The translations under genes were made by a program, and so were the position numbers. A stretch of 64,000 bases of DNA. It comes from Candidatus Nomurabacteria bacterium. GTDB lineage: Bacteria; Patescibacteriota; Dojkabacteria; SC72; JAHDCA01. This document shows positions 496 to 59,476 of the stretch, one piece after another; position 1 is the first letter of the stretch; every line of letters begins with the position of its first letter. The notes below the pieces were generated by a model. The model was not told where the DNA came from and did not search any database. It worked only from the letters and a program-made list of their open reading frames with translations. Location of the stretch: NCBI GenBank assembly GCA_020632395.1, contig JACKFQ010000002.1:172971-236970 (forward strand), given 5' to 3'.

Positions 496-696
496 TTGGG
501 TGCATTATTTAAACTTGGAGATCGTACTGTCCCATTTATATCATATCAAAAGTAACCCGATGATGTGTAGAACAAAGATCCGCGGTTAATGTAAGCTATA
601 TTTATATGTCTTTCTAAATGGAGTACTTCAGATCCACATCTTTAGCTGATGAATATATGTGTTTGGGTGTTCAACTTATACCGTCCTAATAATAAA

Positions 697-723
697 CCCC
701 GGAAGCTTTGTAAACTTCCGGGG
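697..723 (-). terminator. Rho-independent terminator hairpin (CCCCGGAAG-N9-CTTCCGGGG) downstream of the 755..3352 gene
   Basis: Perfect 9-bp inverted repeat with a 9-nt loop, 30 bp past the stop at 755. It is followed on the minus strand by UUUAUUAUU. A T-rich run also flanks it on the plus strand, so it may act bidirectionally. Confidence 0.6.
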
Positions 724-754
724 TAATTGCTTTGTTGTACCTCAGACTCAAGAG

Positions 755-3352
755 CTACTTTCTTTCAGGTTCCCAATTCCCTTGACCCTGTAATACTCTT
801 ACAAAATATGCAGTCTGTTGATCAAGAGGAAAATCGAATCCAAAAGTCTCTGAGCCTGTTTTCTGGAAACCCTCATACCGACCCTTCTCGATTGGCCAAC
901 GGGTAACATTATCTGCGTTGAAGTCGATGGGTTCGTAAAGATTCACGGAGTCAATCATCGATTCCGCAGTATACGCTTTGGTGCCAGTCCCATAGAGCCC
1001 AACAAGATTCCAACCTGGTGTCAGGTATATCGGTGCTGAGTCACCCTCCGATTCATATATTACCTGTTTACCAGTTAGTTCTATGTCCAAATTGATCTTG
1101 GACTTAAGGATATATCCTTGACCTGGAACGATCTGGAAATCATTCACATTATATTGACCTCCATTCTCACCAACCACATTCCAAGTACTTCTGAACTTTG
1201 AGATCGAATAAAAGGCATTATCATACCTCTCATTTAGGCCTGCAAGTAATGTGGAGGCGGTATTCTCTCCAACCAATACCATCGGAAATGAAACGAAGTT
1301 CAACCCCGCCTTTAGCGAATATGTCACCACATCAGCAACTAGTTCGAGATTTAGCAACGAGGCATCTTCGGATAGAGTCGTCTCTCCTGGATCTAAAATG
1401 CCATTTAAATTATTATCAAGGAAGATGGAGTACGATTTCCCTTCTTCTGGTAATAATACTGTGTATGTAACCCCTTGGTACTGGAATTGATATTCACCGT
1501 TAATATATACGAAATACTGACCAGATTGTGGATCGTATAGAACGTTCTGACTACTTTCCGGGACTTGAGCTGATATCTGAAACTTTAAACTGGCAAAGAG
1601 CCTACTCAATTCGGATGCTGATGAATCAGCGGATTCAGGGGTAGCTGGAGCTGCATTAGGGTCTCTTGGGGATCCACAGTATGTATTACCATCTGTATTG
1701 TTATCACATTCAGTTCCTGTCTCACAATCCCACATCCATGGATCATCCGTGCTCATCCCATCGCAACTACTCGGTTTTGTGCATCTTTTTCCACCCCCAC
1801 ACGGCTTCACATTTGTAGAAGTCTCTTGTGGAGGTTTCCAACAGGCACCACTCGGATATCCAACAACTTCATCTCGACACCCAGTTGTACTGAGATCAAC
1901 GCACTCTCCTCCAGCCATACTTTTATAATTGACACAAGCTCCGAATGATCCCCAACAGTTTCTTCCACCACAATTCTGTGCATCATCAGGAAGTTCCTGG
2001 GGCGAGATCGAACCGTTATTGGGTGAATCAGGACATGTCGTTGAGCCTTCGCTCTTGTGAACAACGAAAGGATAATACCAAGAACCATTTGGATACTGCC
2101 CGCCAGGACAGTGACATGAATAAAAACCATCGTCTGTGCCAGCTTCACACCAAGCTCCCTTACCACAATCCACCTGAATTCCATTCTCGTAACAATCATT
2201 AGGTATCACAGGAGGAGGAGATCCACTATCATCATTTGGGAGATTTGATGTTTGGACATCAGGTTCATCGGTATTACTGGGATCAGCGGTACCGATACAA
2301 TATGAATCATCTATACGGAATCCCCCTTGTGCAATTGTGACACCATCTATACATAATAATCTTCTGTCGTCACTAAGATTATCACCATCTCCATCAAAAC
2401 ACTCTCCAAATAATGCGGGGCAACAAGGGTCACATGAGTCCTCAGCATATACCTGATCAGTCAACAGACTGGACATCCCATCGGTCGAGAGTGCTTCATA
2501 GTCAAACAATTCTGTAACATCATATAGCTGCATAAGATTCATAGGTGCATCTTGACCAGTTAGAACTGTCATTGGCATTAGTCTGCCATTCGGACCTGCC
2601 TCCACCCATACCTCCTCAGTCAGTGCTTCTGTTACCTCCCCTAAATACTCTCCATCAGATGAGAGTGCATTAGAGAGATCAAAATAGAATGTGCCATTGT
2701 TTGGATTTACCGCAGAAGAAAGTATCTGAGCATCTGTACCATCAGCATGCCTCAATATCAAATACACCACGCCTTCATCGGATAATTGACCATCTATCGC
2801 TACTACCTGACCGTATGCAGGATAAGGGGTAGCTAACGTCTCTCTTTGTGTAAATGTTGTCACAGCCGTCTTTCTGGTTATGGCATCCCTCACCCCCCTG
2901 AAGAACCATCCATTACCTACCATGATCGAATAACTTGTACTGGGGTCGAGATCTGTGACTGTAACATGATGAACATAATATCTACCTTTCTTCGTAACCT
3001 TGACCTCTGTTTCTATACTATCCACAGACAGTCCAGATCCATTATCAGTGTTAGTAGCTTTTTTACGATTCTTATTGGCCAAAGCAATTTCAGCAGCTGA
3101 GTGATCGCGATCATCATACCCTGGCACACCTCCCGTCTGTAGGAGTTTGATAGATGGTGCACTCTCAGATAGCAACAGTGCCACACCAGGGGTTTTAGCC
3201 TTGGTGACCCATGATATAGTGACAGATCTATCGGTCACATTGGATACTAAAACATTCTTCGGAGCACTTCCCCAAATGCAGTATGTTAGGATGCCAATGA
3301 TCAGAACAGATACAACGAAAGCTATAAAAGCGTATCTTTTTTGTTTGAACAT
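755..3352 (-). CDS. Giant TM-anchored surface protein (865 aa): FN3-like N-domain, Cys/Asp-rich core, conserved C-terminal module
   Basis: N-terminal hydrophobic anchor AFIAFVVSVLIIGILTYCIW. FN3-like VSNVTDRSVTISWVTK...YYVHHVTVTDLDPSTSYSIMVGNG. Cys- and Asp-rich centre (CDPCCPALFGECFDGDGD..., about 40 Cys). C-terminal about 250 aa are homologous to the C-termini of the 4246..7932, 19360..23331 and 23339..27649 proteins (PGWNLVG...W..P end). Confidence 0.8.
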   Translation of the reverse strand: MFKQKRYAFIAFVVSVLIIGILTYCIWGSAPKNVLVSNVTDRSVTISWVTKAKTPGVALLLSESAPSIKLLQTGGVPGYDDRDHSAAEIALANKNRKKATNTDNGSGLSVDSIETEVKVTKKGRYYVHHVTVTDLDPSTSYSIMVGNGWFFRGVRDAITRKTAVTTFTQRETLATPYPAYGQVVAIDGQLSDEGVVYLILRHADGTDAQILSSAVNPNNGTFYFDLSNALSSDGEYLGEVTEALTEEVWVEAGPNGRLMPMTVLTGQDAPMNLMQLYDVTELFDYEALSTDGMSSLLTDQVYAEDSCDPCCPALFGECFDGDGDNLSDDRRLLCIDGVTIAQGGFRIDDSYCIGTADPSNTDEPDVQTSNLPNDDSGSPPPVIPNDCYENGIQVDCGKGAWCEAGTDDGFYSCHCPGGQYPNGSWYYPFVVHKSEGSTTCPDSPNNGSISPQELPDDAQNCGGRNCWGSFGACVNYKSMAGGECVDLSTTGCRDEVVGYPSGACWKPPQETSTNVKPCGGGKRCTKPSSCDGMSTDDPWMWDCETGTECDNNTDGNTYCGSPRDPNAAPATPESADSSASELSRLFASLKFQISAQVPESSQNVLYDPQSGQYFVYINGEYQFQYQGVTYTVLLPEEGKSYSIFLDNNLNGILDPGETTLSEDASLLNLELVADVVTYSLKAGLNFVSFPMVLVGENTASTLLAGLNERYDNAFYSISKFRSTWNVVGENGGQYNVNDFQIVPGQGYILKSKINLDIELTGKQVIYESEGDSAPIYLTPGWNLVGLYGTGTKAYTAESMIDSVNLYEPIDFNADNVTRWPIEKGRYEGFQKTGSETFGFDFPLDQQTAYFVRVLQGQGNWEPERK

Positions 3353-3616
3353 TCTTTTGATATATCATACATTATGTACTATAAATGTACATTAAACGGA
3401 ACCAACATACAAGAAAGTACATATGTAGATCTTTTCCAGCCAATGATATTTCAGCAGTTAATTCATAGACTGCAATTCGATACTGATTAGAATACAGAAA
3501 GTAATTGTTTTCATGACCATTATTATTGAGATCTGCTGGCGAGCACTGAATGAGTAAATTGAGATAAAGGCTGTATCTTAATATTCATATAGTCATAGAA
3601 TATCTTTGATTTAACG

Positions 3617-4131
3617 CATGAGTAAAAATTTTTGTGTCCATGTTGATTGGATCACTAATAATTTTACCAGTCACATATTGGGGCTACTGTTTATGGGCAT
3701 AGATACCTAAGAACGTTCTTGTAACAAACATTACGGATAAATCAGTTACACTATCTTGGGTGACTAAGGTCAAAACCCCTGGGATAGGATACATTTTGAA
3801 ATCTAACACAAATGTTAAGATCTAAGGAACAAGCAAGGCTGTAAGATACGAGAGCGATTCTGATGATAAACAATCTATTTTAGAACCGAGTTGGAACTTG
3901 ATCAGTCTTTATGGAACTGGTACTGTCGACTATACAGCGGAGTCTATGATAAATTTTATCAATATATGTGACCCAATCGACTTCACCGCAGATAATGTAA
4001 CACGTTGGCCTACCGAAAAAGGTCGGTATGAAGGTTTTCAAAAAACTGGTTCTGAAACTTACGGATCCGACTTTCCTCTTGATCAACAAACTGAATATTC
4101 TGTAAAAGTATTGCAGGGTCAAAGAACTTAG
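3617..4131 (+). pseudogene. Collapsed, inverted remnant of a giant-surface-protein paralog (TM/FN3 start joined directly to the C-terminal module; in-frame stops)
   Basis: Plus-strand translation gives ..YCLWA*IPKNVLVTNITDKSVTLSWVTKVKTPGIGYILKSNTNVKI*GTSKAVRYESDSDDKQSILEPSWNLISLYGTGTVDYTAESMINF...VKVLQGQRT. This aligns residue for residue with the N-terminus (YCIWGSAPKNVLVSNVTDRSVTISWVTKAKTPG) and the C-terminal module (GYILKSKINLDIELTGKQVIYESEGDSAPIYLTPGWNLVGLYGTGTKAYTAESMIDS...) of the 755..3352 protein. About 700 codons are missing in between. There are TAG and TAA stops in frame and a frameshift near the TM region. Confidence 0.65.
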
Positions 4132-4179
4132 GAAACTGACAGAGAGTAGCCCTTGAGTCTGAGGTGCAAAAAGACAAGA

Positions 4180-4208
4180 ACCCCTGAAAATTTAGAACCT
4201 CAGGGGTT
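4180..4208. terminator. Bidirectional terminator hairpin (CCCCTGA-N12-TCAGGGG) between the convergent pseudogene and the 4246..7932 gene
   Basis: 7-bp perfect stem. It is followed by TTTTAT on the plus strand and by UUCUUGUCUUUUUG on the minus strand. It lies 38 bp past the stop of the 4246..7932 gene. Confidence 0.5.
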
Positions 4209-4245
4209 TTATGATCATCACATTATGATCTGAACATAAATGAAA

Positions 4246-7200
4246 TTATGGATCAGGAGTCCATGTACCTTGCCCTTGCAATACACGTACGAAGTATCCA
4301 CTACTCGCAATTATCGGAAAGTCAAATCCATATACTTGATATAGACCATTTTCATCCTGCTCTTTCTGTAATCCGTCATACCGACCTTTGTCAGAGGACC
4401 ACCGTGAGACATTATCTACCACGAAAGTATTTGAATTGAGTGAATCGATCCAGGATTCAGCGGTATACAATGTTTCAGAACCAGCGATACCGACAAGATT
4501 CCAGCCTGGAGAGAGGGAGATAGGAACAGAGTCGACAACCTGTAGACCTCGTAGACCAATTAGATAATCATGATTCGATTTTAGAAGGTAACCTCTTCCT
4601 GGAATCAACTGAAAATCTTCGGATCCATAGAGAGAGCCGTCTTCACGCATTCCGACGATGCTCCATGAGCCTGAATCAAAAGCTGCAAGTGAAAAAAAAC
4701 CCTTTGAAAAATTCGTATTGAGGTAAGAAATGAACTCAAATGCAGTTGTGTAATCTTCAGATATTCGATCCAAGTGAATTAGATTCAACCCAGAGGTTAT
4801 GTTCAAATATTCAAGCGAATATTTCTCCTCTAACCTTAGACTTACTCCTTCATCCTCTAGTAGAATATCACCCTCATCCAAAATGTTGTTCTCATTATTG
4901 TCAATGTATAGATCGTATTGCCTACCATTCTCGAGCTCAAAACAATAACCTACACCTGCAACGTCAGTACAGTATCGTCCCGAAGTAGAGATTGAATAAA
5001 GACCATTTGTAGGAGACAGGATGATCTCTTCCTGTGCGTTGACTGTGGTTACTAAATCTTGGAGCTTACTGAAATAAACCGATCTAGTTGGTGGCCCAAG
5101 AGTAGAATTTTGAGCGCTAGGTGTCCTAGTTTTCTCACACGAATATATTATTGATGAATTACAATAGTTGCGGTATACATAATCGTTCAAACTCTCCTTA
5201 CAATTTTCAGAAAGGGCTTCATAACTAAAATCTCCACGAGGACAATCACAGTAATCAGAGTCCGGATCCAAACGTATGTATTCTTGGCATGTTTTTTCAC
5301 CTGAGACATCGCAAAACTCCCCGACGTTGGAAGCATAACAAGTTGCGAATGTTTGGGTAGGACAAATTTGATCTATGTGGATCTCCCAACTGTCAGTATA
5401 CGTCGAATTCCCACCCATACCATTTGATGTTCTTAAACCACCTTCACACCAACAATCATCCTCTGTACATTTATCTCCTGGGAAAATAATCGGCCTACCC
5501 TTCACAAGATGGGTACCAATAGTATCCTTACAAAATTTGCCTATAGGTACCTCGATCGGAGCCCCATTCCAAAATCCTTCCCCTACGTCCTTACATCGGC
5601 AACCAGAATCAACGAGACATCGATCATCCAAACCAATAAGTGATACCCACGTACCTCCAATACACCATAGAACTCCATCATTATTGCTAATCTGTTGACC
5701 CTCACTATATGGACAATCGTCACCAGCTACTATTGGGGTGCCGACACATTTTCCGGGAGTGGTAGAAAGATCACATATTTTAGACGAACATTCCTTATAT
5801 GAAAAGCAATCGCTGTCTAGGGTTCTCAAACAAATTCCTGGATTACTAGAACTACTTCCAACACAAGTTAGGTTATAATCACAGTCTCCAAAACATATTG
5901 CGTAAAGACCTTTTGATTGATTTGGTGATTGATTTGGTGATTGATTTGGTGATTGATTTGGTGATTGATTTGGTGATTGATTTGGTGATTGATTTGGTGA
6001 TTGATTTGGTGATTGATTTGGTGATTGATTTGGTGATTGATTTGGTGATTGATTTGGTGGAGATGTGCTGTCTAGAACTGTTGCACTGGTACATTCACAT
6101 TTTTCGTCCTTAGTACAGAATTTTATATCATCGTTATCTTCGCACAATAACTGACACCCAAGATAATAACATCTATCATCCTGATTGGTTATATCCTCAA
6201 TTGTACAAGTATTATCAGAACCAGTTGGTGAAGGATACTCATTATCTGAACATAAAGGGATGTTTACTGGCTTACAAACGGCATTTGAATTAGGATTCGC
6301 TTTATAACAATAATATCCTGATGGACAATCGTTAGTATTAATATCGCATTCTACTTGATCCGAACCTACCGGTGGAGTCTGACATACTCCAATGTCATAA
6401 CCACATTTACCAACACCAAAACAATCAATACACATTAGATCCCCATACCCGTCGCAACCACCTTCCAATGGGAACTGCTTTCCAATCACACATAGATCAC
6501 CTATGCCCTTATTCTCATTCGTACCATAGTCAGAATTTTTGCATTGATCCGGTGCATCTACCCAACCGCCTCCAATACATCTCCTCCATTCACAGCCACT
6601 GGCGTTTGGGTCATCCCAACACCTTAACTCGCTTGGTCCACACACACCATTAGCACATTGTGCTCCTGGTAGGGTACCGCCAGTATCAGGTTCTTGTGGT
6701 GTAGTTCCGCCGCCACCCCCACCACCACATGTGCTTGCAGCACCTGAAGCACAAGCCTCACTTCGCCACCTTTGTTCACCATCACATCCATTTGTTGCAC
6801 AATAACCATTAAACGAGTCCATATCCGATTGTGATGCTTCGTAACACTTTGATTCACAAGTGACAGTCCAACCAGCAAAGCTTTCAAATGAAACAAACGA
6901 CATGAATGATTGTAAGAGATTTTCTTCAATTACCCTGTACTCTTCGATCAGCACAAAATCCCTCGCTGGAGCATCTTCATATGGGGGTACCTCAGTTCTG
7001 TAGAGTTCGCCGTCTTGACTTCGTACCTCTCCAACTCTCTTGAAATCAAAGATCTCCTCTTCGGAATAGGTTTCTAAAAGGTACCCACCATCAGGTACAC
7101 GTAAAGAGGTGATGTCCAGATACCATGATCCATTTTTGGCTAAGGGAGTTGACACATAACTACTAGTTCGCTCACCTGAGCTATTTTCTAGATAGTAGTA

Positions 7201-7932
7201 GAAAATTCCATCCTCCAAGGGTACGGGTGTAGGAATATCATCAGTGCGATCAAATACTTTCCCATAGATCGGGTCAGGAGTGATTAATTCATCCAACTGG
7301 GGTAATGTTGTGAATGCTGTTTGTTCCTCATTTGATAATAATCTAAAAGTTGTTCCATCACCAATATAAATTGTGTAATTCGTCTCAGAATCCAAACCCC
7401 TAAATGTCACATGGTGAGTATAATATGCACCTAGCTCTGTAACTTCGACATCTTGTTCGATCTGCTTTCCAGAGATCTCTCCATCAGAAGCAATTTCTGC
7501 ATTTGCCTTAGCTAAGTCCAATTCAGCTTTAGTGTAATCCCTATCATCATACCCCTTTATAGAGCCATCGATATTCCCTACAATCAGTTCCTTTAAACCT
7601 TCAGCTTCTGGTACAGCTAATCCTACTGCTTTTTGTGGATTTTTTGTCACCCAAGTCACAGTTGCGGAATTCGAGGTTACATTTGTTATCCTCACCCCTA
7701 TAGGATCAGCAATAAACCTGGAGGTGAAATAGTATGCTCCTGATCCAATTAGAAGCACGATCAAGGCCACCAAAAGCATGATCAGATTGACACGTTTATC
7801 ACCGAAGACTCTTTTGAAAAGGTTCTTTGGCTTTTTTCCTTGAATTGTGGATGTGTCAGAAGTGTTCATAGCTCCCAATGTTCCAACTGCTGTATCCGTT
7901 GTAGCCTTTGTACTATGTGATTGTGACTGCAT
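4246..7932 (-). CDS. Giant TM-anchored surface protein paralog (1228 aa) with (SPNQ)12 repeat linker and conserved C-terminal module
   Basis: Cytoplasmic N-tail of about 50 aa, then TM LIMLLVALIVLLIGSGAYYF. FN3-like RITNVTSNSATVTWVTK...YYTHHVTFRGLDSETNYTIYIGDG. Gly run GGGGGGG. Cys-rich core. (SPNQ)x12. C-terminus ...FVRVLQGQGTWTPDP matches the 755..3352 C-terminus (...FVRVLQGQGNWEPERK). Confidence 0.85.
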   Translation of the reverse strand: MQSQSHSTKATTDTAVGTLGAMNTSDTSTIQGKKPKNLFKRVFGDKRVNLIMLLVALIVLLIGSGAYYFTSRFIADPIGVRITNVTSNSATVTWVTKNPQKAVGLAVPEAEGLKELIVGNIDGSIKGYDDRDYTKAELDLAKANAEIASDGEISGKQIEQDVEVTELGAYYTHHVTFRGLDSETNYTIYIGDGTTFRLLSNEEQTAFTTLPQLDELITPDPIYGKVFDRTDDIPTPVPLEDGIFYYYLENSSGERTSSYVSTPLAKNGSWYLDITSLRVPDGGYLLETYSEEEIFDFKRVGEVRSQDGELYRTEVPPYEDAPARDFVLIEEYRVIEENLLQSFMSFVSFESFAGWTVTCESKCYEASQSDMDSFNGYCATNGCDGEQRWRSEACASGAASTCGGGGGGGTTPQEPDTGGTLPGAQCANGVCGPSELRCWDDPNASGCEWRRCIGGGWVDAPDQCKNSDYGTNENKGIGDLCVIGKQFPLEGGCDGYGDLMCIDCFGVGKCGYDIGVCQTPPVGSDQVECDINTNDCPSGYYCYKANPNSNAVCKPVNIPLCSDNEYPSPTGSDNTCTIEDITNQDDRCYYLGCQLLCEDNDDIKFCTKDEKCECTSATVLDSTSPPNQSPNQSPNQSPNQSPNQSPNQSPNQSPNQSPNQSPNQSPNQSPNQSKGLYAICFGDCDYNLTCVGSSSSNPGICLRTLDSDCFSYKECSSKICDLSTTPGKCVGTPIVAGDDCPYSEGQQISNNDGVLWCIGGTWVSLIGLDDRCLVDSGCRCKDVGEGFWNGAPIEVPIGKFCKDTIGTHLVKGRPIIFPGDKCTEDDCWCEGGLRTSNGMGGNSTYTDSWEIHIDQICPTQTFATCYASNVGEFCDVSGEKTCQEYIRLDPDSDYCDCPRGDFSYEALSENCKESLNDYVYRNYCNSSIIYSCEKTRTPSAQNSTLGPPTRSVYFSKLQDLVTTVNAQEEIILSPTNGLYSISTSGRYCTDVAGVGYCFELENGRQYDLYIDNNENNILDEGDILLEDEGVSLRLEEKYSLEYLNITSGLNLIHLDRISEDYTTAFEFISYLNTNFSKGFFSLAAFDSGSWSIVGMREDGSLYGSEDFQLIPGRGYLLKSNHDYLIGLRGLQVVDSVPISLSPGWNLVGIAGSETLYTAESWIDSLNSNTFVVDNVSRWSSDKGRYDGLQKEQDENGLYQVYGFDFPIIASSGYFVRVLQGQGTWTPDP
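5915..6058. repeat. Perfect tandem repeat: 12 copies of the 12-bp unit GATTGATTTGGT inside the CDS, encoding (SPNQ)12 on the minus strand
   Basis: Direct reading of the sequence shows 144 bp with no mismatch between copies. The unit length is a multiple of 3, so copy-number change keeps the frame. The track ORFs 5879..6094 and 5898..6113 are frame artefacts of this repeat. Confidence 0.95.
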
Positions 7933-8045
7933 TGTGCTTTCGATGACAAATAATAGGGTTTTCCCCCATTAATAATCTATAATATCCAAGCATTTATGGC
8001 AAGGAAGTCGTATAATCACACATATCAAATGATCATCGGCATCCC

Positions 8046-8753
8046 ATGGGAGAACTGACCCTAAATATCAGAAGAAAAGTACAACCTGGCGAGTTAGTTG
8101 ATATCTCACAGAAAGATCGTGAGAATATATCTGAACTCGATTTTGAACTTCCTGATACAGTCATTGTAAAAAGCTTATCAGGAACGTTTATTGGTCAATT
8201 TCGCTGGGAATCAGGGAATGTAAGGCTTCTGATCTGCGATAGATCCAAAGATGACACTACATTACCAATTGTTTTGTTACAATCAATTCCAGAACCCCAA
8301 AACAGGTTTTCTAGGATCCTCGAGGGTTGCATAGAATTAGGTGTGGAATTTTTGATACCTTTAGATACATATTACGACAAACCAGTAAACGATCTACAGA
8401 AACTAATAAACGCCACCATTGCAGATTCGTCCAAGCAATCAATGACCGATACACCTACAGATATATCAGAGATCATGTCTCTTGATAAAATCGATTGGTC
8501 ACAATTCAATACCACGAACAAGATCTGTCTGAGCACCGAACCAGTCAACACAATTCGTTTATCTGAGGCTATTTCTATAGACAAACCCCATCTGATCGCT
8601 ATCGGACCACCTCGTGGCTGGCATAGTAGTGAGATCGAGTATTTTAAAGATCATGGATTCCATTTTGTGAATTTGAGGAGTAATATCCTACGAACTGATA
8701 CAGCAGGTGTGGTCGTTTCATCAATTATCAAGTATATTCAAGGAGAATTATGA
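8046..8753 (+). CDS. rsmE: 16S rRNA (uracil1498-N3)-methyltransferase RsmE-like (SPOUT)
   Basis: C-terminal motif HLIAIGPPRGWHSSEIEYFKDHGFHFVNLRSNILRTDTAGVV matches the RsmE signature (IGPEGG...E....G...LG.RILRTETA). Length of 235 aa is typical. Confidence 0.7.
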   Translation: MGELTLNIRRKVQPGELVDISQKDRENISELDFELPDTVIVKSLSGTFIGQFRWESGNVRLLICDRSKDDTTLPIVLLQSIPEPQNRFSRILEGCIELGVEFLIPLDTYYDKPVNDLQKLINATIADSSKQSMTDTPTDISEIMSLDKIDWSQFNTTNKICLSTEPVNTIRLSEAISIDKPHLIAIGPPRGWHSSEIEYFKDHGFHFVNLRSNILRTDTAGVVVSSIIKYIQGEL

Positions 8754-9778
8754 GCAAACCTAGAAAACCTCGTGGTCGCCGTCAGGCACAACGATCAAAG
8801 TTCAAGAATGATGAGAAGTTCTTTACGAAAGAGGATATATTTCTTTCACGCATGGCAAGTATACTACTGGTGGATAAGAAGCTGGTTAAATCATTCTTTG
8901 GTCAAAGGAATGTTAGTACAATCAGACTCAACAACCTTTTAGAAGATCCTCAAAAGATCAAACAGCATCTGATCGATGCTGGTCTAGACCTTATCGAGGT
9001 CGATTGGTCTCCCAACACCTATATTGTCAGTAACATGGATAAGTCAGAGTTAGGCAGAATGCAAGAATATGACAGAGGTTTATTCTATATCCAGAATCTA
9101 TCCAGTATGTTACCCGTGATAGTCCTCGACCCACAACCCGGAGAGAAGATACTAGATATGACTGCTGCACCGGGAAGTAAGACTTCGATGATAGCAGCAC
9201 TAACAGGCAATGAGGTGGAGATGATAGCAAATGAAGAGGATCACAGACGGGCAGGAAAACTCAGAGCAGTACTTTCTCAATTTGGCGTAAAACATACTCA
9301 AGTGACCGAGAAAGATGCTCGGTTCATAGGCAAAGCCCTACCAGACCACTTCGACAAAGTTCTACTAGACGCTCCATGTAGTGGGGAAGGCTTAGTATAT
9401 CTACGAGGAGATAAACCCTTACGTTTCTGGAATATTAAAAAGATCAAACATATGAGTTCACTACAAAAACAACTCATCACTTCCGCTTTTGATACATTAA
9501 AACCAGGTGGAGAACTTATTTATTCGACCTGTACTCTCGAACCAGAGGAAAATGAGGGTGTTGTGACACATCTGGTAGAACAGCGAAAAAATGCGCGTAT
9601 CGAAAAGATCGATCTGGTTAATTCCGATTCGTTCAAGGAGTTTTCGAGATTCACTACAAGAGGGATAGTAAAATGGAGCGGAAATAGATTTCATCAGGAA
9701 TCCGCACGAGCGATCCGAGTTATTCCTAGTGCTCAAATGCAAGGCTTCTTCATTTCAAAGATCTCTAAAAAGAAGTAG
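8750..9778 (+). CDS. rRNA cytosine-C5 methyltransferase, NOL1/NOP2/Sun (RsmB/RsmF) family
   Basis: AdoMet motif DMTAAPGSKT, active-site region VLLDAPCSGEG, and second Cys motif LIYSTCTLEPEENEGVV. ATGA start/stop overlap with rsmE. Confidence 0.8.
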   Translation: MSKPRKPRGRRQAQRSKFKNDEKFFTKEDIFLSRMASILLVDKKLVKSFFGQRNVSTIRLNNLLEDPQKIKQHLIDAGLDLIEVDWSPNTYIVSNMDKSELGRMQEYDRGLFYIQNLSSMLPVIVLDPQPGEKILDMTAAPGSKTSMIAALTGNEVEMIANEEDHRRAGKLRAVLSQFGVKHTQVTEKDARFIGKALPDHFDKVLLDAPCSGEGLVYLRGDKPLRFWNIKKIKHMSSLQKQLITSAFDTLKPGGELIYSTCTLEPEENEGVVTHLVEQRKNARIEKIDLVNSDSFKEFSRFTTRGIVKWSGNRFHQESARAIRVIPSAQMQGFFISKISKKK

Positions 9779-9930
9779 ATCTAACTGATTGTATATAAGA
9801 CCTGGGATATGGACTTTTACATTGACCCTACCCCATACTTTCCACCGCACCAGCTAAGATTACATCTCTACAAAGGGGATATGTTGTGCAGTAGCAATAC
9901 TGAAAATTCACCGAAATATCACTAATTTGT

Positions 9931-11901
9931 TTAGTATGAGCTACATTCATTGTAATTTGGATTCGAATGGCTAGGGATATTTGAGGTTGATGGGATCCAT
10001 GTCTCGCCTTCGATCTCTAATTCACCAAACCACACAACTTCTGCAGAGGTGATTTTCCATTCTCCACGTTCTAATCTAACATATAGTGAATCATTCATAC
10101 ATTGATCTACCATCTCACCTGTAGTCTTATTTGGAGCCTTGTAATTGAACTTGATCGGTATATATAGACCATACCAGTTATTCGGGATCCCAAAAGGATC
10201 ATAATTGAGCAGATACCAATCATCAAATGCAGGGATCTCCACAGGGACATATCCGGTAACGATTATTTGAGAAAGAGCTTGGAATTGCTTGTCCTCATAA
10301 ACCACACCGTCTGACCAGTATTTTTTTATCATTTGAGAGTTCTTATTCTTGAGTGCACCAGAATATCTGGAGATAAAATCTGCAAGATCATTTTCTGCCT
10401 CGAGTTTCAGTTCGACAGGATCAAGAGAGCTTTTCGACGATCTTAGGCTCGGCCAATATATATTCCATGCGCTATTATCGCCATTGAAAGACGGATCTGT
10501 AGAATAGTGTGCTTTCGTAACTTTCTGCATAGTTTCAGTACCGACTTCATCAACTTTCCGAAGATTTAAAGAAGTAGCTTCATCGCTTAGGTTAATGTTG
10601 TATGCAAGGTCAAAACTCGCACCGGATCCAAATCGCTCCCAATTCACATATGCCACCAATCGATCCGTAGGAAATACAATAAGTGGCAAGATGATGGACA
10701 ATGAAATATATAAAGACCATTTGTTGATCCTGCGAAAGAATTGCTCCGTTCGTACGGATAAGAACAACAAGGTCAACATCGCCATAACCCCTAGCATCAT
10801 TATATGACCAAGCAATCGGATATTCGTGAGTCCATAAAACTGCTCTGTGATAAGTAAACGGTAGTGAGCAGATACACCTATCAGAAATGTAAGTCCGATC
10901 AAGGTATAGAAAGGAAGAGTGAGACTCTTTTTCAATTTGACCCTATCAACCACACCTAACATCACAGTAGATATGCCGATCACTAGGAACGAAGTAATTA
11001 GTAATTCAACAAAACCTCTCCTTGCGTACTGTGCAAAGGTCAGGCCGGTAGCTTCTGAGATCACCTGTTCAGATCCTCCAAATAAGTACCGAAGTTGCAC
11101 AAACACAAACACTCCGAAAAGGATAGATAAAAGTGAGAAAAATGTTGTAAAGATGATTGGTTCATACCCCGTGATGATTGGTGGTTTCAATTTTATGAGT
11201 GAGTTTTGGAAAGCATCGGTCTTGGACATCATAATTCCGTACAAACCCACAAGTAAAAGAGAAACTATGACGATGACCATGAGATCATCTATCGAGACCC
11301 AGAGATCTATATCAGCCAACCACTTTATCAGATCGCTAACGGAGAATACCTGTGCAAATGCCGGATCAGCACTACTAAACAACCCTCCGAATATCACTAA
11401 CAACGGGATTGCAAGAATTATCCCTATAGCAACATATGTTAAACTACGGAAAGGGATCTTTCGATCTCCTTTGCTTTTGGTGATCTTTCTCTTACTGCCT
11501 GTATCGAATTGGTCATAAGCACTGATCATGGAGATTGGTAAACTTATACACCTTATCACTGCTTGTGCTACCCCTGCAGTGATAGATATTGGTTTTGAGT
11601 ACCCAAACTCATCCAACAGAGCTATGATCATGAACGGGAGTAACATACAGTAGATCACAGTAGCAAAAACATTATCTCGTATCAGGGGTGGTAACAGGAT
11701 GACCAGTATCGCTAATGATACTGAAATATTTAAACTCACCTTTTTAGATGGGATATACAATTTCACTAAGAGAAGAGAAACGACGATGATCGATGCAGTA
11801 AACAGAAATATCCCTAATCCTGGTTCAAAACCCCTAACCAAATAATTGAACATTAAAGAAAGAAGCAGAGAAAGTGAAAGTGTCGTGATAAATTTTTGCA
11901 T
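9931..11901 (-). CDS. Polytopic integral membrane protein (about 12 predicted TM helices) with a C-terminal soluble domain of about 230 aa; function unknown
   Basis: Repeated 20-25-residue hydrophobic stretches through the first 420 aa. The hydrophilic C-terminal domain (..NINLSDEATSLNLRKVDEVGTETMQK...) has no motif I recognise. Confidence 0.55.
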   Translation of the reverse strand: MQKFITTLSLSLLLSLMFNYLVRGFEPGLGIFLFTASIIVVSLLLVKLYIPSKKVSLNISVSLAILVILLPPLIRDNVFATVIYCMLLPFMIIALLDEFGYSKPISITAGVAQAVIRCISLPISMISAYDQFDTGSKRKITKSKGDRKIPFRSLTYVAIGIILAIPLLVIFGGLFSSADPAFAQVFSVSDLIKWLADIDLWVSIDDLMVIVIVSLLLVGLYGIMMSKTDAFQNSLIKLKPPIITGYEPIIFTTFFSLLSILFGVFVFVQLRYLFGGSEQVISEATGLTFAQYARRGFVELLITSFLVIGISTVMLGVVDRVKLKKSLTLPFYTLIGLTFLIGVSAHYRLLITEQFYGLTNIRLLGHIMMLGVMAMLTLLFLSVRTEQFFRRINKWSLYISLSIILPLIVFPTDRLVAYVNWERFGSGASFDLAYNINLSDEATSLNLRKVDEVGTETMQKVTKAHYSTDPSFNGDNSAWNIYWPSLRSSKSSLDPVELKLEAENDLADFISRYSGALKNKNSQMIKKYWSDGVVYEDKQFQALSQIIVTGYVPVEIPAFDDWYLLNYDPFGIPNNWYGLYIPIKFNYKAPNKTTGEMVDQCMNDSLYVRLERGEWKITSAEVVWFGELEIEGETWIPSTSNIPSHSNPNYNECSSY

Positions 11902-19359: not shown

Positions 19360-22300
19360 TCAGCCATCAGGAGTCCAATAGCCGACACCCTCATCTACAA
19401 ATAGAAAGATTCCTATCTTGTCACTTATCGTGTAGTCTACTCCAAACACACCATCTCCTTTAGTAACATATGTAATGAACCTCCCTCGTGCCGGATCCCA
19501 GATCGCAACTTTACTAGCTTTGACACCTGGCAGTTGATTCACCTCTGCCAAGAGCTCGCTTGCAGATATCTGGGCTGATCCACCTTTCAATGCAATCAAA
19601 TTCCAGCCCTTTACCATATATTGCTGTACAGGGGATGTATAACTTTTCCCTTTGAGTCTCAATTTTACAGCCTCCTGGACTACTAGATACATCGCATCTC
19701 CCGGTGACAAGGTAAAGTCTTCACCATAATTCTGTGTCCCACGCCTATTCGCAGAAAACCATCCATTAGTAGCATTTCCCGAGTATGTAGCAACTGCTGT
19801 TGCATAACCCCCTTGATCTATGATCTCCTGAAGTATTTCTTGGGCCTCGTCAAAATCTTCTGTATAAAAAGGGATCGAGAGTATCGAGATACCCGGTTTT
19901 AGATCGATCTCTATGACATCCCCAACTTTTGTTAATTTCAGATCCATAATAGATGGGGCAGGGTATTCATCAGTGTCAAAGATCCCATCGCCATCTCTGT
20001 CTTGGAATACCGGTACATTTATCTGATCATCTGAATAATTATAGACATACTGTTCGCTTGTATCGAAAACAGATGATTCGATCAAAAATTCCCCACGACT
20101 TGGAAGTTTCAATGATGCAGCACCAAGAACCATATTCATAGATTCACCACCAGAAAGCAATATACTCTGCACACCACCAACAGATGGATCCCAGCAAGCT
20201 TCCCCATTAGGTCCTGACACATTATCAGAAGTGCATTGCCCACCTCCTCCACCTACACCTCCTCCACCTACTGCACCCCCATCAGTCTCGGCATTCCCCA
20301 CTGAGATCGAATCATTCACAAATAGCTCTGCAGAATCCCAGTAAGCATCAGAATTTCTGTACGGATATTCATTATTAGCAGCTAAATATACCGTGATAAG
20401 AGAGGAATCTGAGCTTGCAGAGATCTCAAAGTCAGTGAACTGACTACTGTCACTAGGTTGTACATTTGGTAGATCTTTCCAATCAGACCAGATGACAGAT
20501 GTAGAGTCAGGATCAATACCGCCTGTAGGGTCGATGCCTATCCTTCCTACAAATTTGTTTACTACCTGACACACACAATCACCTGACTCATTACAGCTGG
20601 CTTCTCCAAAATTCTCACAATGCTTACCATCAGACCAGGATGAAGCTCTTGCTTTAAATATAAGATCATTTGATCCACCTTCCCCAAGATCTATCTGCTG
20701 ATATACACCTGCATGATGAGTTCCGTAAGTTGTAAACCATTGTAAGGAGGAGGCTCCACCTCCTGAGGGGATCCTATTTGCAAATCCTGTCGATTGTTTA
20801 TACTCGGGTCGTCTGCATATCGCAGGATCTGACGAACACGAATACACCCCACACATCCCTCCCTGACATCCGTTCTGATACCATGCATGCCAATATTGTG
20901 GAACTTTGAGCTCAGCAGCACCATCAGATACGAAACTTCCTTCAAAACCTCCATTTAATAATCCACCTAAAGCTGTTGCATGATCTTGATGACCTACTCC
21001 TACACAAATATTCCCTAGGCATGGGTCATTTCCATTGTATGTCCCTCCGTAGGGAGATGACGAACTACTCGTATTTCCGTTTACCCCAGTTATACCAACA
21101 CTTGATGTATTGCCTGTGCTGGTAGCACTTCCTGTATATCCCTTTTCAAAAGTTACACTCACTGAGCCTTCCTGAGGAACCTGAAAATTTCCTGCTCCAC
21201 AATTTGATAACAGTCTTGAGATCAAGCCGGAATTAGACCATAACTCTTGATGATATGAAAATGCACTGTCGGGGTTAGAGCCAAGACTATTGAAAAGCAT
21301 TATCACAAAGACATTTTCCATCGAATCGAGAGCTCCTATAGTGTTTGCGAGAACATCCCAATTCATTGAAGTATCGATCTTTCCCAGCTCTGTAACAATT
21401 ATCGTATCCCTCAGCCCTTTTGATTGTAGATATGATGTAAATGCCTGAATATCAGATACAACATTACCCTCGCCCCTTTGATATAAGTAGTCATTTACTG
21501 CCCATGCAAATATATCTCCTGATACTGCTGAGAACGAGCTGTTTTCCAACATCTTATCCACATAGGTCTGTGCAGAATAGATAGGATGAGGATTTGGATC
21601 ATCACACCCATCATTGCAACCCGGCCACTGTCCATCGCCATTACTATATAGATCAAGATTTGGAGAGATCACTTTAATTCCAATATCCTCAGGATCTGTT
21701 GATAAAACGCCAGCTCCTTTCAGAACAGAGATCAGATCAGCAACAAACTGAGCCTCATCGTTAGGATCACGGTATTCGGCAACATTTGGTTCATTATGAC
21801 CTCCATGAATAAAAAGTCCATTTTGAGGTAATTGCCCAGAGGCTTTTAGTGAATTATAGACCTCTAATACGGAGTTACCATAAGCATTCCCATTATTGAT
21901 ATTGCAATTTCCTTTGTAGCAAAGCCTTAAGAGTAGGTTCATCCCGACATTCTTCCCATTTATCACACTTTGAGCATAATCATTCATCGCACCAAGATCA
22001 GTTATCAATGCCTCTCCCCATCTCATACGAGAACCTACAGCTTGTTGCATTTTATCTACAGGGACTTGGTACTGGATGGCGAAATTCTCCCCCATCTTTG
22101 AACATAAGTTCGCTGTTTGAGTCATCGGAGGGATAGTTGTTCCTGCTGGACTTGAGTCCCCTGCCGATCCAGTTGTTCCTGTAGAACCTGTTGTACCAGT
22201 CACGACTGGGGCTGGAGGTCCTTTTGGTATGTTCACGGTCACAGATGGGTCCTTTTCTGTCGTATTTATACACTCGGTTGTACCGTCAAAAGCTTTGATC

Positions 22301-23331
22301 AAATATGTCTTCCCGATCTCCAAACCAGATGATCCAATTTCTACATACCCACCATTTCGGATCTCAAGATCTGCATTAGTTGTAGGATCTTGAACATATG
22401 AGCTTGAGGTTTCATCAAAAAGTTTGAGGGTTACAGTAGCGGGTCTATGAAATTGGGTGTAGCTAGTATGTTTGATCAGCCCTAATCTAAATCTGGATTC
22501 CCCCTCCGGACAATCTCTGGTATCCAATGAGGATGTCCAATCGATCTTATCATTACACTGCACACGTATCCCTCCTCGATCAGTGCTATTTATACAGCTA
22601 TTTGCTGCATTTACTTGATGAAGAAGGGCAATATCTGATCCATCGAGTGTAGAGGGAAAGATTATGTCTGCTACAGGTTGATTATAGAAGGATGCGGTCA
22701 TATAGGTTCGTTTTTCACCGAGAGGCGTTACAACCTCAACTTCTTGAATGAAGTTCTCATCTACTCCATTGGTATATGCGATACTATAACTACCATTATC
22801 TCCTGTAGTGGAGGCAATTATCGGAGCAACATCATCTTCAGATCGTATCAATACCAGAGAATCTTTTATACCAAGGTCGTGATCATCTACAACTCGCCCA
22901 TACACTCTAGAAGGGGTTGGGATATCTTCGCTGACTGATGGCAGAGAGAATTGTTGCGATATCTCAGGCTTATTGAATATGACACCTTTTAGTGTATCAG
23001 ACCACGATAAAGAATGCTCTTGTATCGCATGATCGAGTTTAACTTCGTAATATTCATAATAAACAGTGTCAACATGATCGATCAAGCATGGAAGATTCCC
23101 ATTGTCACAATCAGATAGATGCTCGTCGTCACTTTTGATCACAGACGATACAAAAGGCAGATGAAAAGAAGGCTCTTTAAGGATCACTATTGTTATGGCG
23201 TCATCAGAGATATTGGCTAAAACATGTTCCTTGTATGAGGATCTTTCAATGAAAATGAACAGCAATAGTAATGTCGCCGGAACAAGTACTGCTAGAAACA
23301 GCATTATTGTTATCCTTACGGTATTTTTCAT
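19360..23331 (-). CDS. Giant secreted/TM-anchored protein (1323 aa) with a transthyretin-like domain, a GH5-like (clan GH-A) glycoside-hydrolase signature, a Cys-rich region and the shared C-terminal module
   Basis: N-terminal anchor ITIMLFLAVLVPATLLLLFIFI. CarboxypepD_reg-like VYGRVVDDHDLGIKDSLVLIRSEDD..TTGDNGSYSI. Gly/Thr linker TGTTGSTGTTGSAG. GH-A hallmarks: ..LLLRLCY.. (beta2 Arg), HGGHNEPNVAEY (acid/base NEP), and about 140 aa later IIVTELGK (nucleophile TE.G). Cys-rich region CLGNICVGVG..CQGGMCGVYSCSSDPAICRRPEY. Poly-Gly run. C-terminal KGWNLIALKG...VDEGVGYWTPDG is homologous to the 755..3352 family C-termini. Confidence 0.8.
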   Translation of the reverse strand: MKNTVRITIMLFLAVLVPATLLLLFIFIERSSYKEHVLANISDDAITIVILKEPSFHLPFVSSVIKSDDEHLSDCDNGNLPCLIDHVDTVYYEYYEVKLDHAIQEHSLSWSDTLKGVIFNKPEISQQFSLPSVSEDIPTPSRVYGRVVDDHDLGIKDSLVLIRSEDDVAPIIASTTGDNGSYSIAYTNGVDENFIQEVEVVTPLGEKRTYMTASFYNQPVADIIFPSTLDGSDIALLHQVNAANSCINSTDRGGIRVQCNDKIDWTSSLDTRDCPEGESRFRLGLIKHTSYTQFHRPATVTLKLFDETSSSYVQDPTTNADLEIRNGGYVEIGSSGLEIGKTYLIKAFDGTTECINTTEKDPSVTVNIPKGPPAPVVTGTTGSTGTTGSAGDSSPAGTTIPPMTQTANLCSKMGENFAIQYQVPVDKMQQAVGSRMRWGEALITDLGAMNDYAQSVINGKNVGMNLLLRLCYKGNCNINNGNAYGNSVLEVYNSLKASGQLPQNGLFIHGGHNEPNVAEYRDPNDEAQFVADLISVLKGAGVLSTDPEDIGIKVISPNLDLYSNGDGQWPGCNDGCDDPNPHPIYSAQTYVDKMLENSSFSAVSGDIFAWAVNDYLYQRGEGNVVSDIQAFTSYLQSKGLRDTIIVTELGKIDTSMNWDVLANTIGALDSMENVFVIMLFNSLGSNPDSAFSYHQELWSNSGLISRLLSNCGAGNFQVPQEGSVSVTFEKGYTGSATSTGNTSSVGITGVNGNTSSSSSPYGGTYNGNDPCLGNICVGVGHQDHATALGGLLNGGFEGSFVSDGAAELKVPQYWHAWYQNGCQGGMCGVYSCSSDPAICRRPEYKQSTGFANRIPSGGGASSLQWFTTYGTHHAGVYQQIDLGEGGSNDLIFKARASSWSDGKHCENFGEASCNESGDCVCQVVNKFVGRIGIDPTGGIDPDSTSVIWSDWKDLPNVQPSDSSQFTDFEISASSDSSLITVYLAANNEYPYRNSDAYWDSAELFVNDSISVGNAETDGGAVGGGGVGGGGGQCTSDNVSGPNGEACWDPSVGGVQSILLSGGESMNMVLGAASLKLPSRGEFLIESSVFDTSEQYVYNYSDDQINVPVFQDRDGDGIFDTDEYPAPSIMDLKLTKVGDVIEIDLKPGISILSIPFYTEDFDEAQEILQEIIDQGGYATAVATYSGNATNGWFSANRRGTQNYGEDFTLSPGDAMYLVVQEAVKLRLKGKSYTSPVQQYMVKGWNLIALKGGSAQISASELLAEVNQLPGVKASKVAIWDPARGRFITYVTKGDGVFGVDYTISDKIGIFLFVDEGVGYWTPDG

Positions 23332-23338
23332 TTACCAG

Positions 23339-26300
23339 TTACTTCTCTGAGGGTATCCAATACCCTACACCATTATCAACAAGTAAAAATATCCCCTGTA
23401 CATCAGTTATCCCGAAATCAGAACCATACTCCTCACGACCTTCAAAGATGAACTGTCTGTAACTACCTTTGGAACTATCCCATACCGCTATAGCAGATGC
23501 CTGTACTCCTGGGAGATCGGTTACTTCCTCTAATACTCTACCAGCATCATAGCTTGCAGATGTACCCTTGATTGCTATTAGATTCCAACCCGCCTTTACA
23601 TACTGCTGAACTGGTTCTGCGTAAGATGTACCCCGTAATCTAAGGTCTACAGCTCTTTTGATCACTATGAACATAGCGTCTCCAGGTCTGAAGTCAAAAT
23701 CCTCACCATAACTCTGGTTTCCGACCATACTATACATATTCCAGCCAGATGTTTTTCCACTATTTCGATAAACAGCAATAGAAGTTGCTAAACCACCTTG
23801 ATCTTTGATGGCAGAAAAGATATCACTTACACTCGTAAGATCTTCATTGTAAAAAGGAATTGAGACGAGGTTGATCCCTTCTGACAGATCTAGTTGTATG
23901 GCATCTCCGATCTGTCGAATGCTCACCATACTAACATCAGGAGCAAACGGTTCTCCTTCATCATATTCACCATCCTGATCCAGATCCTGAAATACAGGTA
24001 GTTCTAGCGGTGTATTTGCAAAATTCGCACGATAGATCGGTTCACTCATATATCCCTCTGCATAGATCTCATACTCACCTCGAGTTGGCAAAGTGATCAT
24101 TGGAGGGGTCGTTGCTCCTAATATATTTTGAGATATTATATTTGAATTCGTAGGAAGGAGATCTTTGCTACTTTGTAATCGGGGATCTTCAAAATCACCA
24201 TTCCAATTTGGTACACATTTTGTTACACAACAGTGTGCTCCCAACTTCCCGTCACCAGGAGGAATAACCCCACAACCTGCAGGGCATTGTGCAGATGTGC
24301 GCCCCCAGGGGCATGAGTTTGCCGGAGGGAGAGGTTCATCTGTATTGAGCCATTTTTTGGTTGATTCAATATATCCATCAGGACATAAAGGTTGACAACT
24401 TTGGGATTCAACCCAACAGGCGTCTATACCTGTTATATCGGAAACGCTTTGATCACACGCTATACCAGAGGGGGTTGTACCACCCCCACCTGTTGTATCA
24501 TATTCTAATTGCTGTTCACCTGAATTCGTGGCATCACCAACAGACAAAATATCATTTACGAACATTTCTACGCCATCCCAGTATGAGTCAGAGTTTCTGT
24601 ATGGATATTCATTATTTGAGGCGAGGAAAACTGTCACCCTATCATTTGAGGAGGTGGTTTCGATCTCAAATTGTACAAAATTCGCTCCATCTTGAGGTCC
24701 AACATTGGGTAATGACTTCCACTCTGTCCACTCAACGGTCGATGCGGTAGGATCGATACCCCCAGTTGGATCGATCCCTACCCGTCCAACAAATTTATTA
24801 ATTATCTCACAGAAACAATCCCCTTCAACAACACAACTAGATTGACCATATCCCTCACATCTTTTGTCATCCGACCAGGAAGACGCACTGGCAATAACTT
24901 TAATATCATTTGTTCCTCCTAGACCAAGTTCAACTTGTTGGTAAACTCCAGCATGATGTGTCCCGTAAGTAGTAAAGTATTGTAGCGAGGCGCTTCCTGC
25001 TAATCTACGATTTACGACATCAGCACCACTAGATTGCTTATATTCAGGTCTTCGGCAGAAGGCCGGCTCATTAGAACAAGCATAGATCCCACACTGCCCC
25101 CCCTGGCAACCGTTCTGATACCACACATGCCAGTACTTAGGCACATTTAATTCAGCTGCTCCATCGCTAACGAACTCACCTTCCATGTTTCCATTCAATA
25201 ATCCCCCTACCGCTACAGCATAATTATTATAATCTTTTCCTACGCATATCCCTCCTAGACAAGGGTCAGACCCATTATATGACGACCCGTAGATGCCGGG
25301 AGATCCACTACTACTCCGTGCGGAATTATCCGGTGAGCTATTAAATGGTACCGAACTTGAGGTTGTAGGGGGTGAGGAACTACCACTTGCACTACTGCCA
25401 TTACCATTACTCGAACTCCCAGAGGTAGTAGTCACAGGTACTTCTCCTTCCTGAGGGACTTGATATGATCCGATAGTACAATTTGAGAAAAGACTCTTGA
25501 GAAGGTTACTATCATCCCATAGGGGTTTGTGGTATTCAAAAGCAGGATCTCGATTAGTTCCTAAAGCATTGAACAGCAGGAATCCTTCGACATATTCTTT
25601 TGATTCTAATGTTGCCAAGGTATTTGCTAATACAGACCAGTCATGAATAGGTTGTTGTCCAGGAGGTGCGTAGTTACCAGTTTCTGTAATGAATACACGA
25701 CCCGGTAGATCTCGCGGTTGTAAGTATGCCGAGTAAAAGCCATCCACATCAGCATTAACAGCATCAGGACCCTTTTGATAAATATAATCATTTACTGCCC
25801 ATGCATACAACTTGTTCGCAGCTTCGTAGAAACCTTCAACCTTCAGCATCTCATCGATATATGACTGTGCGGTGTATATAGGATGTGGATTTGGGTCATC
25901 ACACCCGTCAGAACAACCTTGCCACTGTCCATTCTGATAAATGTACAGGTCAAGATTAGGACTCAAGAGCTTGATTGTAGTCTCACCGAGATCTTGTCCG
26001 AGCAATCCGGCAGAATCTACAGCATTCACAACACCTATCAGGAAGTTTGCCTCAGAGGTTGGATCTCGATATTCTGCATTGTTCGGCTCATTGTGCCCGG
26101 CATGGGCAAACAACCCATCCTGAGGAAGAGTACCGCTTTGCATCAACTCATTGAATACACCTACTAAGGCTTGACCATATGCAACCCCATCATTCACATT
26201 ACAATTATTTTTATAACATAAGCGAAGTATCACATTCATACCTAAATTATTTGCATCTGACACAGAAGCCTTATAATCATTGATCCCACCAAGATCCGTG

Positions 26301-59472: not shown

Positions 59473-59476
59473 AGCC

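Follow-up and report, generated by a model that had tools for sequence, protein, structure and literature searches.

The stretch of DNA analysed here (64,000 nt, called the window throughout) comes from a bacterium of the candidate phyla radiation (CPR; Patescibacteria) with a small genome of roughly 1.1 Mb, and it carries a cluster of paralogous surface-protein genes. Between two of these, gene A and gene B, lies the element studied here, which we call the remnant (3618-4149, plus strand). The remnant is a collapsed copy of gene A, in which the start, the membrane-anchor region and the opening 26 codons of the FN3-like domain are joined in frame to the last 123 codons. It is oriented divergently from gene A and convergently with gene B. 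Both genes have a common layout: they begin with a membrane anchor, which is followed by an FN3-like domain, a Cys-rich middle part and, last, a C-terminal module. The features of the locus are as follows.

668-1118, minus strand: partner arm, comprising the 3' end of gene A (codons 745-865), its 3' untranslated region (3'UTR) and its terminator hairpin (696-724)
755-3352, minus strand: gene A, 865 amino acids (aa), intact, the closest paralogue of the remnant, with a membrane anchor, an FN3/purple-acid-phosphatase-N-like domain, a Cys-rich middle and a conserved C-terminal module
3618-3699, plus strand: start codon (ATG at 3618) and relic of the N-terminal membrane anchor, from three-frame translation and TBLASTN, reading MSKNFCVH / LIGSLIILPVTYWGYCLWA where gene A has MFKQKRYAFIAFVVSVLIIGILTYCIWGS
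near 3640, plus strand: +1 frameshift, from three-frame translation
3700-3702, plus strand: first premature stop, TAG, at the position of Ser29/Ala30 of gene A
3706-3783, plus strand: first 26 codons of the FN3-like domain (PKNVLVTNITDKSVTLSWVTKVKTPG), equivalent to codons 31-56 of gene A, with 73% nucleotide and 81% amino-acid identity
3778-3786, plus strand: deletion junction, CCTGG/GAT, where codons 57-742 of gene A are gone
3786-4056, plus strand: older C-terminal part, equivalent to codons ~745-835 of gene A, 63% identical in nucleotides to 1118-848 of gene A, without indels
3823-3825, plus strand: second premature stop, TAA (Glu to stop)
4057-4149, plus strand: younger 3' coding part, equivalent to codons 836-865 of gene A plus the stop
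4129-4131, plus strand: third premature stop, TAG (Trp to stop)
4150-4178, plus strand: relic 3'UTR spacer
4179-4208, minus strand: terminator hairpin, homologous to the terminator of gene A at 696-724, from a terminator scan and folding
4246-7932, minus strand: gene B, 1,228 aa, intact, a more distant paralogue, convergent with the remnant

Homology of the remnant to gene A

The relationship to gene A was evident at both the nucleotide and the protein level. A BLASTN comparison of 3353-4245 with the window matched 3890-4209 to 1014-694 on the minus strand (76.8% over 323 nt, E 7e-63) and, as a second hit, 3706-3782 to 3262-3186 (74%, E 5e-8). TBLASTN with gene A matched its residues 743-865 to 3778-4146 (65.9% identity, E 1.5e-43) and residues 9-80 to 3631-3852 (E 2.9e-13). 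The segment 3778-4149 is collinear, with no indel, with the last 123 codons and the stop of gene A (124 codons), and the ancestral stop codon TAG is retained at 4147-4149 in register with that of gene A. The homology extends past this stop through the 3'UTR and the terminator hairpin, out to about 4236. At 4150-4180, 24 of the 31 positions are identical to 754-724 of gene A (77%), including an exact 14-mer, CTTGAGTCTGAGGT, which has no occurrence in the window beyond the two homologous copies and is not a recurrent motif. A repeat search delimited inverted arms at 668-1019 and 3885-4236, which are 352 nt long, 74% identical without gaps and 2,865 nt apart. The amino-acid identity of the remnant is 65-67% to gene A and at most 50% to every other homologue; by this measure, the remnant is the sister of gene A. 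The deletion that separates its two parts comprises 686 codons (2,058 nt), is in frame, and sits at a Pro-Gly microhomology, both parental sides in gene A reading CCWGGT.

Several of these features had been proposed earlier in a reading of the letters without database searches (hereafter, the sequence-only reading). The collapsed, inverted copy of the neighbouring gene that it placed here is real and far beyond chance, and three-frame translation confirmed both the in-frame fusion of the N-terminus to a C-terminal part and the frameshift upstream. The orientation given there, convergent with gene B, was correct too. The inverted repeat flanking about 3 kb also stood, although the identity of about 80% to 755-1000 did not: the true partner of 3898-4131 is the reverse complement of 773-1006, at 75.2% nucleotide identity, with 82% over 3988-4149. 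The proposed deletion of about 700 codons was corrected to the size given above, the nonsense codons number three instead of two, and the homology does not end at 4131. The C-terminal module, said to be retained, is represented by its last 123 residues and not by its whole length of ~260-290 residues. The terminator that had been placed at 4180-4208, between the remnant and the convergent gene, was recovered at 4179-4208 as a minus-strand call.

The C-terminal module

We examined the C-terminal module at 758-1675 of the window and at the C-termini of gene B and of the paralogues at 19360-23331 and 23339-27649. A profile of the module matched 3,371 cluster representatives (E <= 1e-3), 537 of them at E <= 1e-30. 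In nearly all of these matches the module is a single unit of ~260-290 residues at the very C-terminal end of a protein 850-1,470 aa long. Among the best 150 family matches, all but one take in the module undivided and begin at profile positions 2-60. The remnant, by contrast, enters the profile only near position 172 and keeps the last part of the module, about 40% of it. No Pfam or NCBIfam model matched the module, and a sequence-profile search of the PDB was empty. An AlphaFold model of the module was usable (pLDDT 78); a Foldseek search with it against the PDB gave no match at E <= 0.001. These proteins form a large, unnamed, CPR-specific family of surface proteins, probably involved in host attachment, and the remnant records the turnover of such genes through birth, conversion and death.

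Past constraint, decay and the mosaic 3' end

Comparison of the remnant with gene A by codon position showed 4, 2 and 15 differences at first, second and third positions in the FN3 piece, and 27, 26 and 66 in the C-terminal piece. The proportions of differing synonymous and nonsynonymous sites (pS and pN) were 0.72 and 0.11 in the FN3 piece, and this divergence is, as judged from these values, old and accrued under past purifying selection. In the C-terminal piece as a whole, pS was 0.73-0.87 against a pN of 0.21-0.23, and silent sites were saturated in 3778-4056 (pS 0.87, pN 0.23). The bias by codon position, together with saturated silent sites at a low pN, indicates that the remnant descends from a paralogue, hereafter R, that was functional for a long time.

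The signs of later decay lie mainly on the side of the remnant. When the amino-acid changes were polarised with 15 outgroup homologues, 30 fell on the remnant branch and 8 on the branch of gene A, with 4 ambiguous. Among 36 family-conserved columns (at least 80%), nine are broken in the remnant and two in gene A. The GC content at third codon positions is 31% in the remnant, compared with 41% in gene A. Homology to a functional gene, lesions that block a full-length product and constraint that is relaxed relative to the intact copy are the marks by which a pseudogene is recognised, and all three were found here.

The silent sites, furthermore, are a mosaic. Silent-comparable codons differed at 39 of 59 positions before ~4057 and at 3 of 20 after it (Fisher p 8e-5), and a maximum-chi-square permutation test gave p 0.0014 for the breakpoint. 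Amino-acid divergence was equal on the two sides (31/93 codons before, 11/31 after). The 11 differing codons in 4057-4149 comprise ten residue changes and the Trp-to-stop codon, with a pN/pS of 0.53, and ten of the 11 (nine amino-acid changes and the Trp-to-stop codon) fall on the remnant branch. A pN/pS of 0.53 past the breakpoint is the value expected for one constrained copy and one neutral copy. The mosaic suggests one old ectopic gene conversion, which would have homogenised the 3' end, the 3'UTR and the terminator of A and R. On the simplest reading it took place, in one direction or the other, at about the time when R died, after which gene A stayed under constraint and R drifted. An exchange of this kind would be ordinary concerted evolution of paralogues and not a programmed system.

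The terminator hairpin

Folded on the minus strand, in the sense of gene B, the hairpin has 11 pairs and the tail CTTGTCTTTT, and it lies 38 nt downstream of the stop codon of gene B. Its folding energy is -17.7 kcal/mol (z -3.6; 0 of 200 shuffles folded as well), compared with -21.3 kcal/mol for the hairpin of gene A. The inner part of the stem has been lost and a stable stem kept, with one pair held by a compensatory change from G-C to U-A. A stable GC-rich stem, a T-rich tail and a position just past a stop codon, which define an intrinsic terminator, were all present at 4179-4208. We consider that the hairpin was inherited from the dead gene and now probably terminates the transcript of gene B. 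It is the sole part that still looks maintained, and it may have stayed intact while the coding part decays because it now serves gene B.

A promoter scan was uninformative, with 24 sites returned and 22 expected. The intergenic sequence between gene A and the remnant, compared with its own reverse complement for a duplicated promoter, scored 43, within the range of shuffled sequences (mean 31, standard deviation 5, maximum 51). Rfam and tRNA scans of the region detected no RNA genes.

Relatives and the sampled population

In the nearest relative locus, an orthologue of gene A (46% identity) lies directly after a DUF4153 gene, and neither gene B nor the remnant is present, which indicates that the duplication is lineage-specific. 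Across 23 related loci from a GTDB genome scan, all with at most 46% identity, we found no comparable relic, no intact orthologue of R and no intact gene at the same position. A scan of JGI metagenomes with a degenerate pattern for TRWPxEKGRYEGFQK, which is common to gene A and the remnant, revealed no close relatives. A protein search with the 101-aa translation of the remnant returned only its own 61-aa NCBI annotation, and one with gene A returned four clusters only, the best at 46% identity. Gene order also differs between 8046-11901 of the window and 4657-9116 of the nearest relative locus. In the latter, the DUF4153 gene stands between RsmE and the orthologue of gene A; in the window it is found beyond the RsmB-RsmE pair, the gap being filled by gene B and the remnant, so that the locus has undergone rearrangement in addition to expansion.

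Exact-sequence look-ups, which favour identical copies, yielded 8 contigs with the exact protein of gene A and 19 with the exact 77-aa open reading frame (ORF) of the remnant (3898-4131). We examined 16 contig places, which reduce to 10 unique contigs drawn from 10 runs or assemblies (an NCBI metagenome-assembled genome, an ENA assembly, and Logan contigs belonging to two series of SRA accessions). These assemblies are consensus sequences, in which rare variants are hidden, and the sample is one near-clonal population (at least 99.7% identity). All 16 places had the order A (minus), remnant (plus), B (minus). There was no single-nucleotide polymorphism (SNP) in 3353-4245 at any of them, including a 99.7%-identical ENA strain that differs elsewhere, at 19 positions in the first 6 kb. 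Five alleles make up the protein cluster of gene A at 90% identity. They are all of 865 aa and vary only at residues 360, 398, 410, 479 and 483; no allele has a chimeric C-terminus.

Gene A has six population SNPs (window 1905-2274), every one of them nonsynonymous: N360I, K398D (two neighbouring changes within a single codon), F410Y, M479I and E483V. Synonymous SNPs are absent, and all six lie in the Cys-rich middle region. This pattern suggests diversifying selection on an exposed part of the protein, with an invariant C-terminal module.

Origin of the remnant and alternative explanations

The sequence-only reading had raised two possibilities for the remnant, a dead gene and a silent cassette. 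The first is borne out by the multiple lesions, the 30:8 excess of amino-acid changes, the loss of family-invariant residues and the drift towards AT at third positions. We conclude, with a probability of roughly 0.86, that the remnant is the decaying pseudogene of R, a third, divergently oriented paralogue in the cluster. In the order of events that we infer, R would have been born by duplication of the lineage of gene A, after the split from the nearest sequenced relative, and would have remained under purifying selection long enough to saturate its silent sites. At some point the single gene conversion with gene A would have taken place. R would then have lost its function and drifted neutrally by ~0.1-0.15 substitutions per site, gaining during this time the in-frame deletion of 2,058 nt at the Pro-Gly microhomology, the +1 frameshift and the three nonsense codons. 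We would not expect a protein product from the remnant.

In all essentials the remnant is like an ordinary bacterial pseudogene, with an intact homologous neighbour, several independent lesions, a large microhomology deletion, faster amino-acid change and AT drift at third positions, and as with other such genes, annotation pipelines mistake it for a short hypothetical protein. The differences are minor: the terminator has apparently been taken over by the convergent gene, the converted 3' stratum is younger, and the genome is a CPR genome of ~1.1 Mb, where quick purging of relics is expected. The remnant thus represents a routine and unremarkable gene death in a cluster of paralogous surface-protein genes. 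It is also a small, clean example of the probable reuse of a dead gene's terminator by a convergent neighbour.

Some observations weigh against this interpretation. The C-terminal piece of 372 nt contains no small indel despite the estimated 0.1-0.15 substitutions per site; this count is below the expectation for bacterial pseudogenes, and a little residual constraint is therefore conceivable. The deletion happens to be in frame, an outcome with a chance of 1 in 3, and a transient functional mini-protein may therefore have existed. The timing of events is model-based, because the sample is one near-clonal population and the searches turned up no intact orthologue of R. In the old part, the saturation of silent sites makes the ratio of nonsynonymous to synonymous substitution rates (dN/dS) an upper bound only. 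Finally, the use of the terminator by gene B is proposed from position and structure only. A related explanation is that the relic has been co-opted as regulatory DNA, in which the hairpin ends gene B and the 5' part spaces the promoter region of gene A, and that it also acts as a very rare conversion partner for the 3' end of gene A. The latter role is hinted at by the one past exchange suggested above, and as a whole we regard this explanation as unlikely. If it were true, it would account for the persistence of the remnant in a streamlined genome of 1.1 Mb, where a dead paralogue would insulate two surface-protein genes and occasionally seed C-terminal variation.

The geometry of the locus recalls systems of programmed variation. 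The remnant could be kept as a silent donor cassette, or the 2.9-kb segment could be invertible, so that the C-terminal module of gene A is replaced and the surface varied. The inverted arms of 352 nt with ~75% identity are in line with this, as is the silent-site mosaic, which implies at least one past exchange of the 3' ends; moreover, the genes belong to a surface family, and the exclusively nonsynonymous SNPs of gene A and the variable copy number of a repeat in gene B suggest a locus under diversifying pressure. However, exact matches between the arms reach at most 17 nt, within an overall identity of 63-82%, and fall below the roughly 25-30 nt of identity that efficient RecA-dependent exchange usually needs. 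The last 30 codons of the supposed donor hold the Trp-to-stop codon and five broken family-conserved residues, so that their transfer would disable gene A. In the window, as in locus L001, the remnant is present only once, with three stops and ~40% of the module, and the related loci contain no further relic. All 16 places are collinear in one orientation at the assembly level and show no SNP in the remnant, and the five alleles of gene A differ only within residues 360-483. No resolvase, invertase, integrase or reverse transcriptase (RVT) domain was detected by Pfam in 34 window ORFs of at least 150 aa, the ORFs of this length outside the scan being mostly nested antisense in larger genes, and a repeat search found no short near-perfect boundary repeats around the segment. 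The cassette proposed in the sequence-only reading was accordingly left unsupported and is, in our estimate, very improbable: contigs with an inverted segment or chimeric C-termini, which would have betrayed such a system, were absent from the 16 places and from the five alleles of gene A, and the available sample showed the same decayed copy everywhere with no sign of inversion or conversion, the old mosaic exchange aside. The known systems differ in the same respects. In the silent-cassette antigenic variation of Neisseria (pilE/pilS), Borrelia (vlsE/vls) and Mycoplasma genitalium (MgPa/MgPar), as here, a promoterless-looking partial copy of a surface gene lies near the expressed copy, and the one past exchange is a further likeness. 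Those systems have several stop-free cassettes in arrays, tracts identical with the expression site and heterogeneity of the expression site within populations, whereas the remnant is one copy with stops and at most 17 nt of continuous identity, next to a gene A whose C-terminus lacks heterogeneity. In the G segment of phage Mu with Gin and the R64 shufflon with Rci, serine or tyrosine invertases exchange the C-termini; as at our locus, the alternative 3' end of a surface or adhesion gene lies inverted beside the expressed gene, but here the scanned ORFs include no recombinase gene, near-perfect crossover sites were not found, a single orientation is seen and the end bears a nonsense codon. 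Diversity-generating retroelements (DGRs) are common in CPR bacteria, and a locus at which the 3' end of a surface-protein gene is repeated close to that gene, in a CPR genome, superficially resembles one, with the remnant as the template repeat that mutagenises a variable repeat at the C-terminus of gene A. The mismatch spectrum refutes this. The 119 mismatches involve all bases (remnant base A 42, T 33, C 24, G 20) and are not adenine-specific, they comprise 59 transitions and 60 transversions, and they are concentrated at third codon positions. In addition, the repeat takes in the stop codon, the 3'UTR and the terminator, and the scanned ORFs lack a reverse transcriptase domain, so that we give a DGR practically no credence. 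Silent-cassette systems, invertible segments and DGRs resemble the remnant in geometry only, and their defining features fail where tested.

Two further explanations take the remnant as something other than a relic. The 77-aa ORF at 3898-4131 could be a live small gene that encodes a functional stand-alone C-terminal fragment: it is open for 77 codons, it is called in NCBI, ENA and Logan assemblies, and its amino-acid identity to gene A is still 75%. However, the ORF covers only part of what is one folded module. It ends at the Trp-to-stop codon and so lacks the conserved G-x-W-x-P tail, and further conserved residues (two Phe, one Arg and one Gly) have been lost from it. Its start is either a TTG without a convincing ribosome-binding site or an ATG just 3 nt after GGAG, and the protein search found no homologous stand-alone short protein besides the ORF itself. 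A live gene is thus hardly to be expected, and we consider it about as improbable as the cassette. In the NCBI annotation, a 61-aa hypothetical protein (H6763_02925, MCB9789437.1) occupies 3946-4131, and other callers start at the TTG at 3898 (77 aa). This call is probably a mis-annotation, and MCB9789437.1 (the 61/77-aa 'hypothetical protein') should be marked as a pseudogene fragment. A chimeric or mis-joined contig could, alternatively, have produced a false collapsed copy, since paralogous repeats and the 12-nt tandem repeat of gene B break assemblies here (Logan contigs end at 5943). The same sequence was nevertheless recovered base for base from 10 independent runs or assemblies, and the copy is 25-35% diverged from gene A and so is not a mis-assembled piece of it. 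An assembly artefact is almost certainly not the explanation.

Setting of the locus in the window

The C-terminal modules of genes A and B are 38.5% identical, and the FN3-like domain of both corresponds to PF16656, at or slightly under the Pfam cut-off. The cluster contains further members:

starting at 471 and running off the left edge of the window, minus strand: third surface-protein gene, 1,104/1,112 aa
19360-23331 and 23339-27649: two further, more distant paralogues

The window is 99.9% identical to contig JACKFP010000001.1 (1.09 Mb, GCA_020632435.1). The organism is listed at NCBI as 'Candidatus Nomurabacteria bacterium', and in the GTDB genome scan the nearest genomes carry the labels Candidatus Dojkabacteria or uncultured Saccharibacteria. 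Pfam matches on the window ORFs include housekeeping genes, a sortase and type-IV-secretion-like genes. The sortase and the type-IV-secretion-like genes, which encode a VirD4/TraG-like coupling protein, a PrgI-family protein and a VirB4/TraG P-loop ATPase, thus share the window with the surface-protein cluster (28948-29757, 40928-43495 and 57928-62526).

Gene B contains a perfect 12-nt tandem repeat at 5914-6057, which encodes (SPNQ)n. Its copy number varies by assembly of the same population, and the length of gene B goes accordingly from 1,228 aa in the window to 1,224 in GCA_020632435.1 and 1,192 in ENA ERZ27248703; every Logan contig stops within this repeat, at 5943. The variation reflects either a surface protein with a contingency-type length polymorphism or a collapse of the assembly. 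At 120-418 of the window, in the N-terminus of the gene that starts at 471, ENA strain L032 differs at 14 positions clustered in 300 nt, with just 5 differences in the following 5.5 kb. This cluster of differences may mark a tract of recombination or conversion within another surface-protein paralogue.

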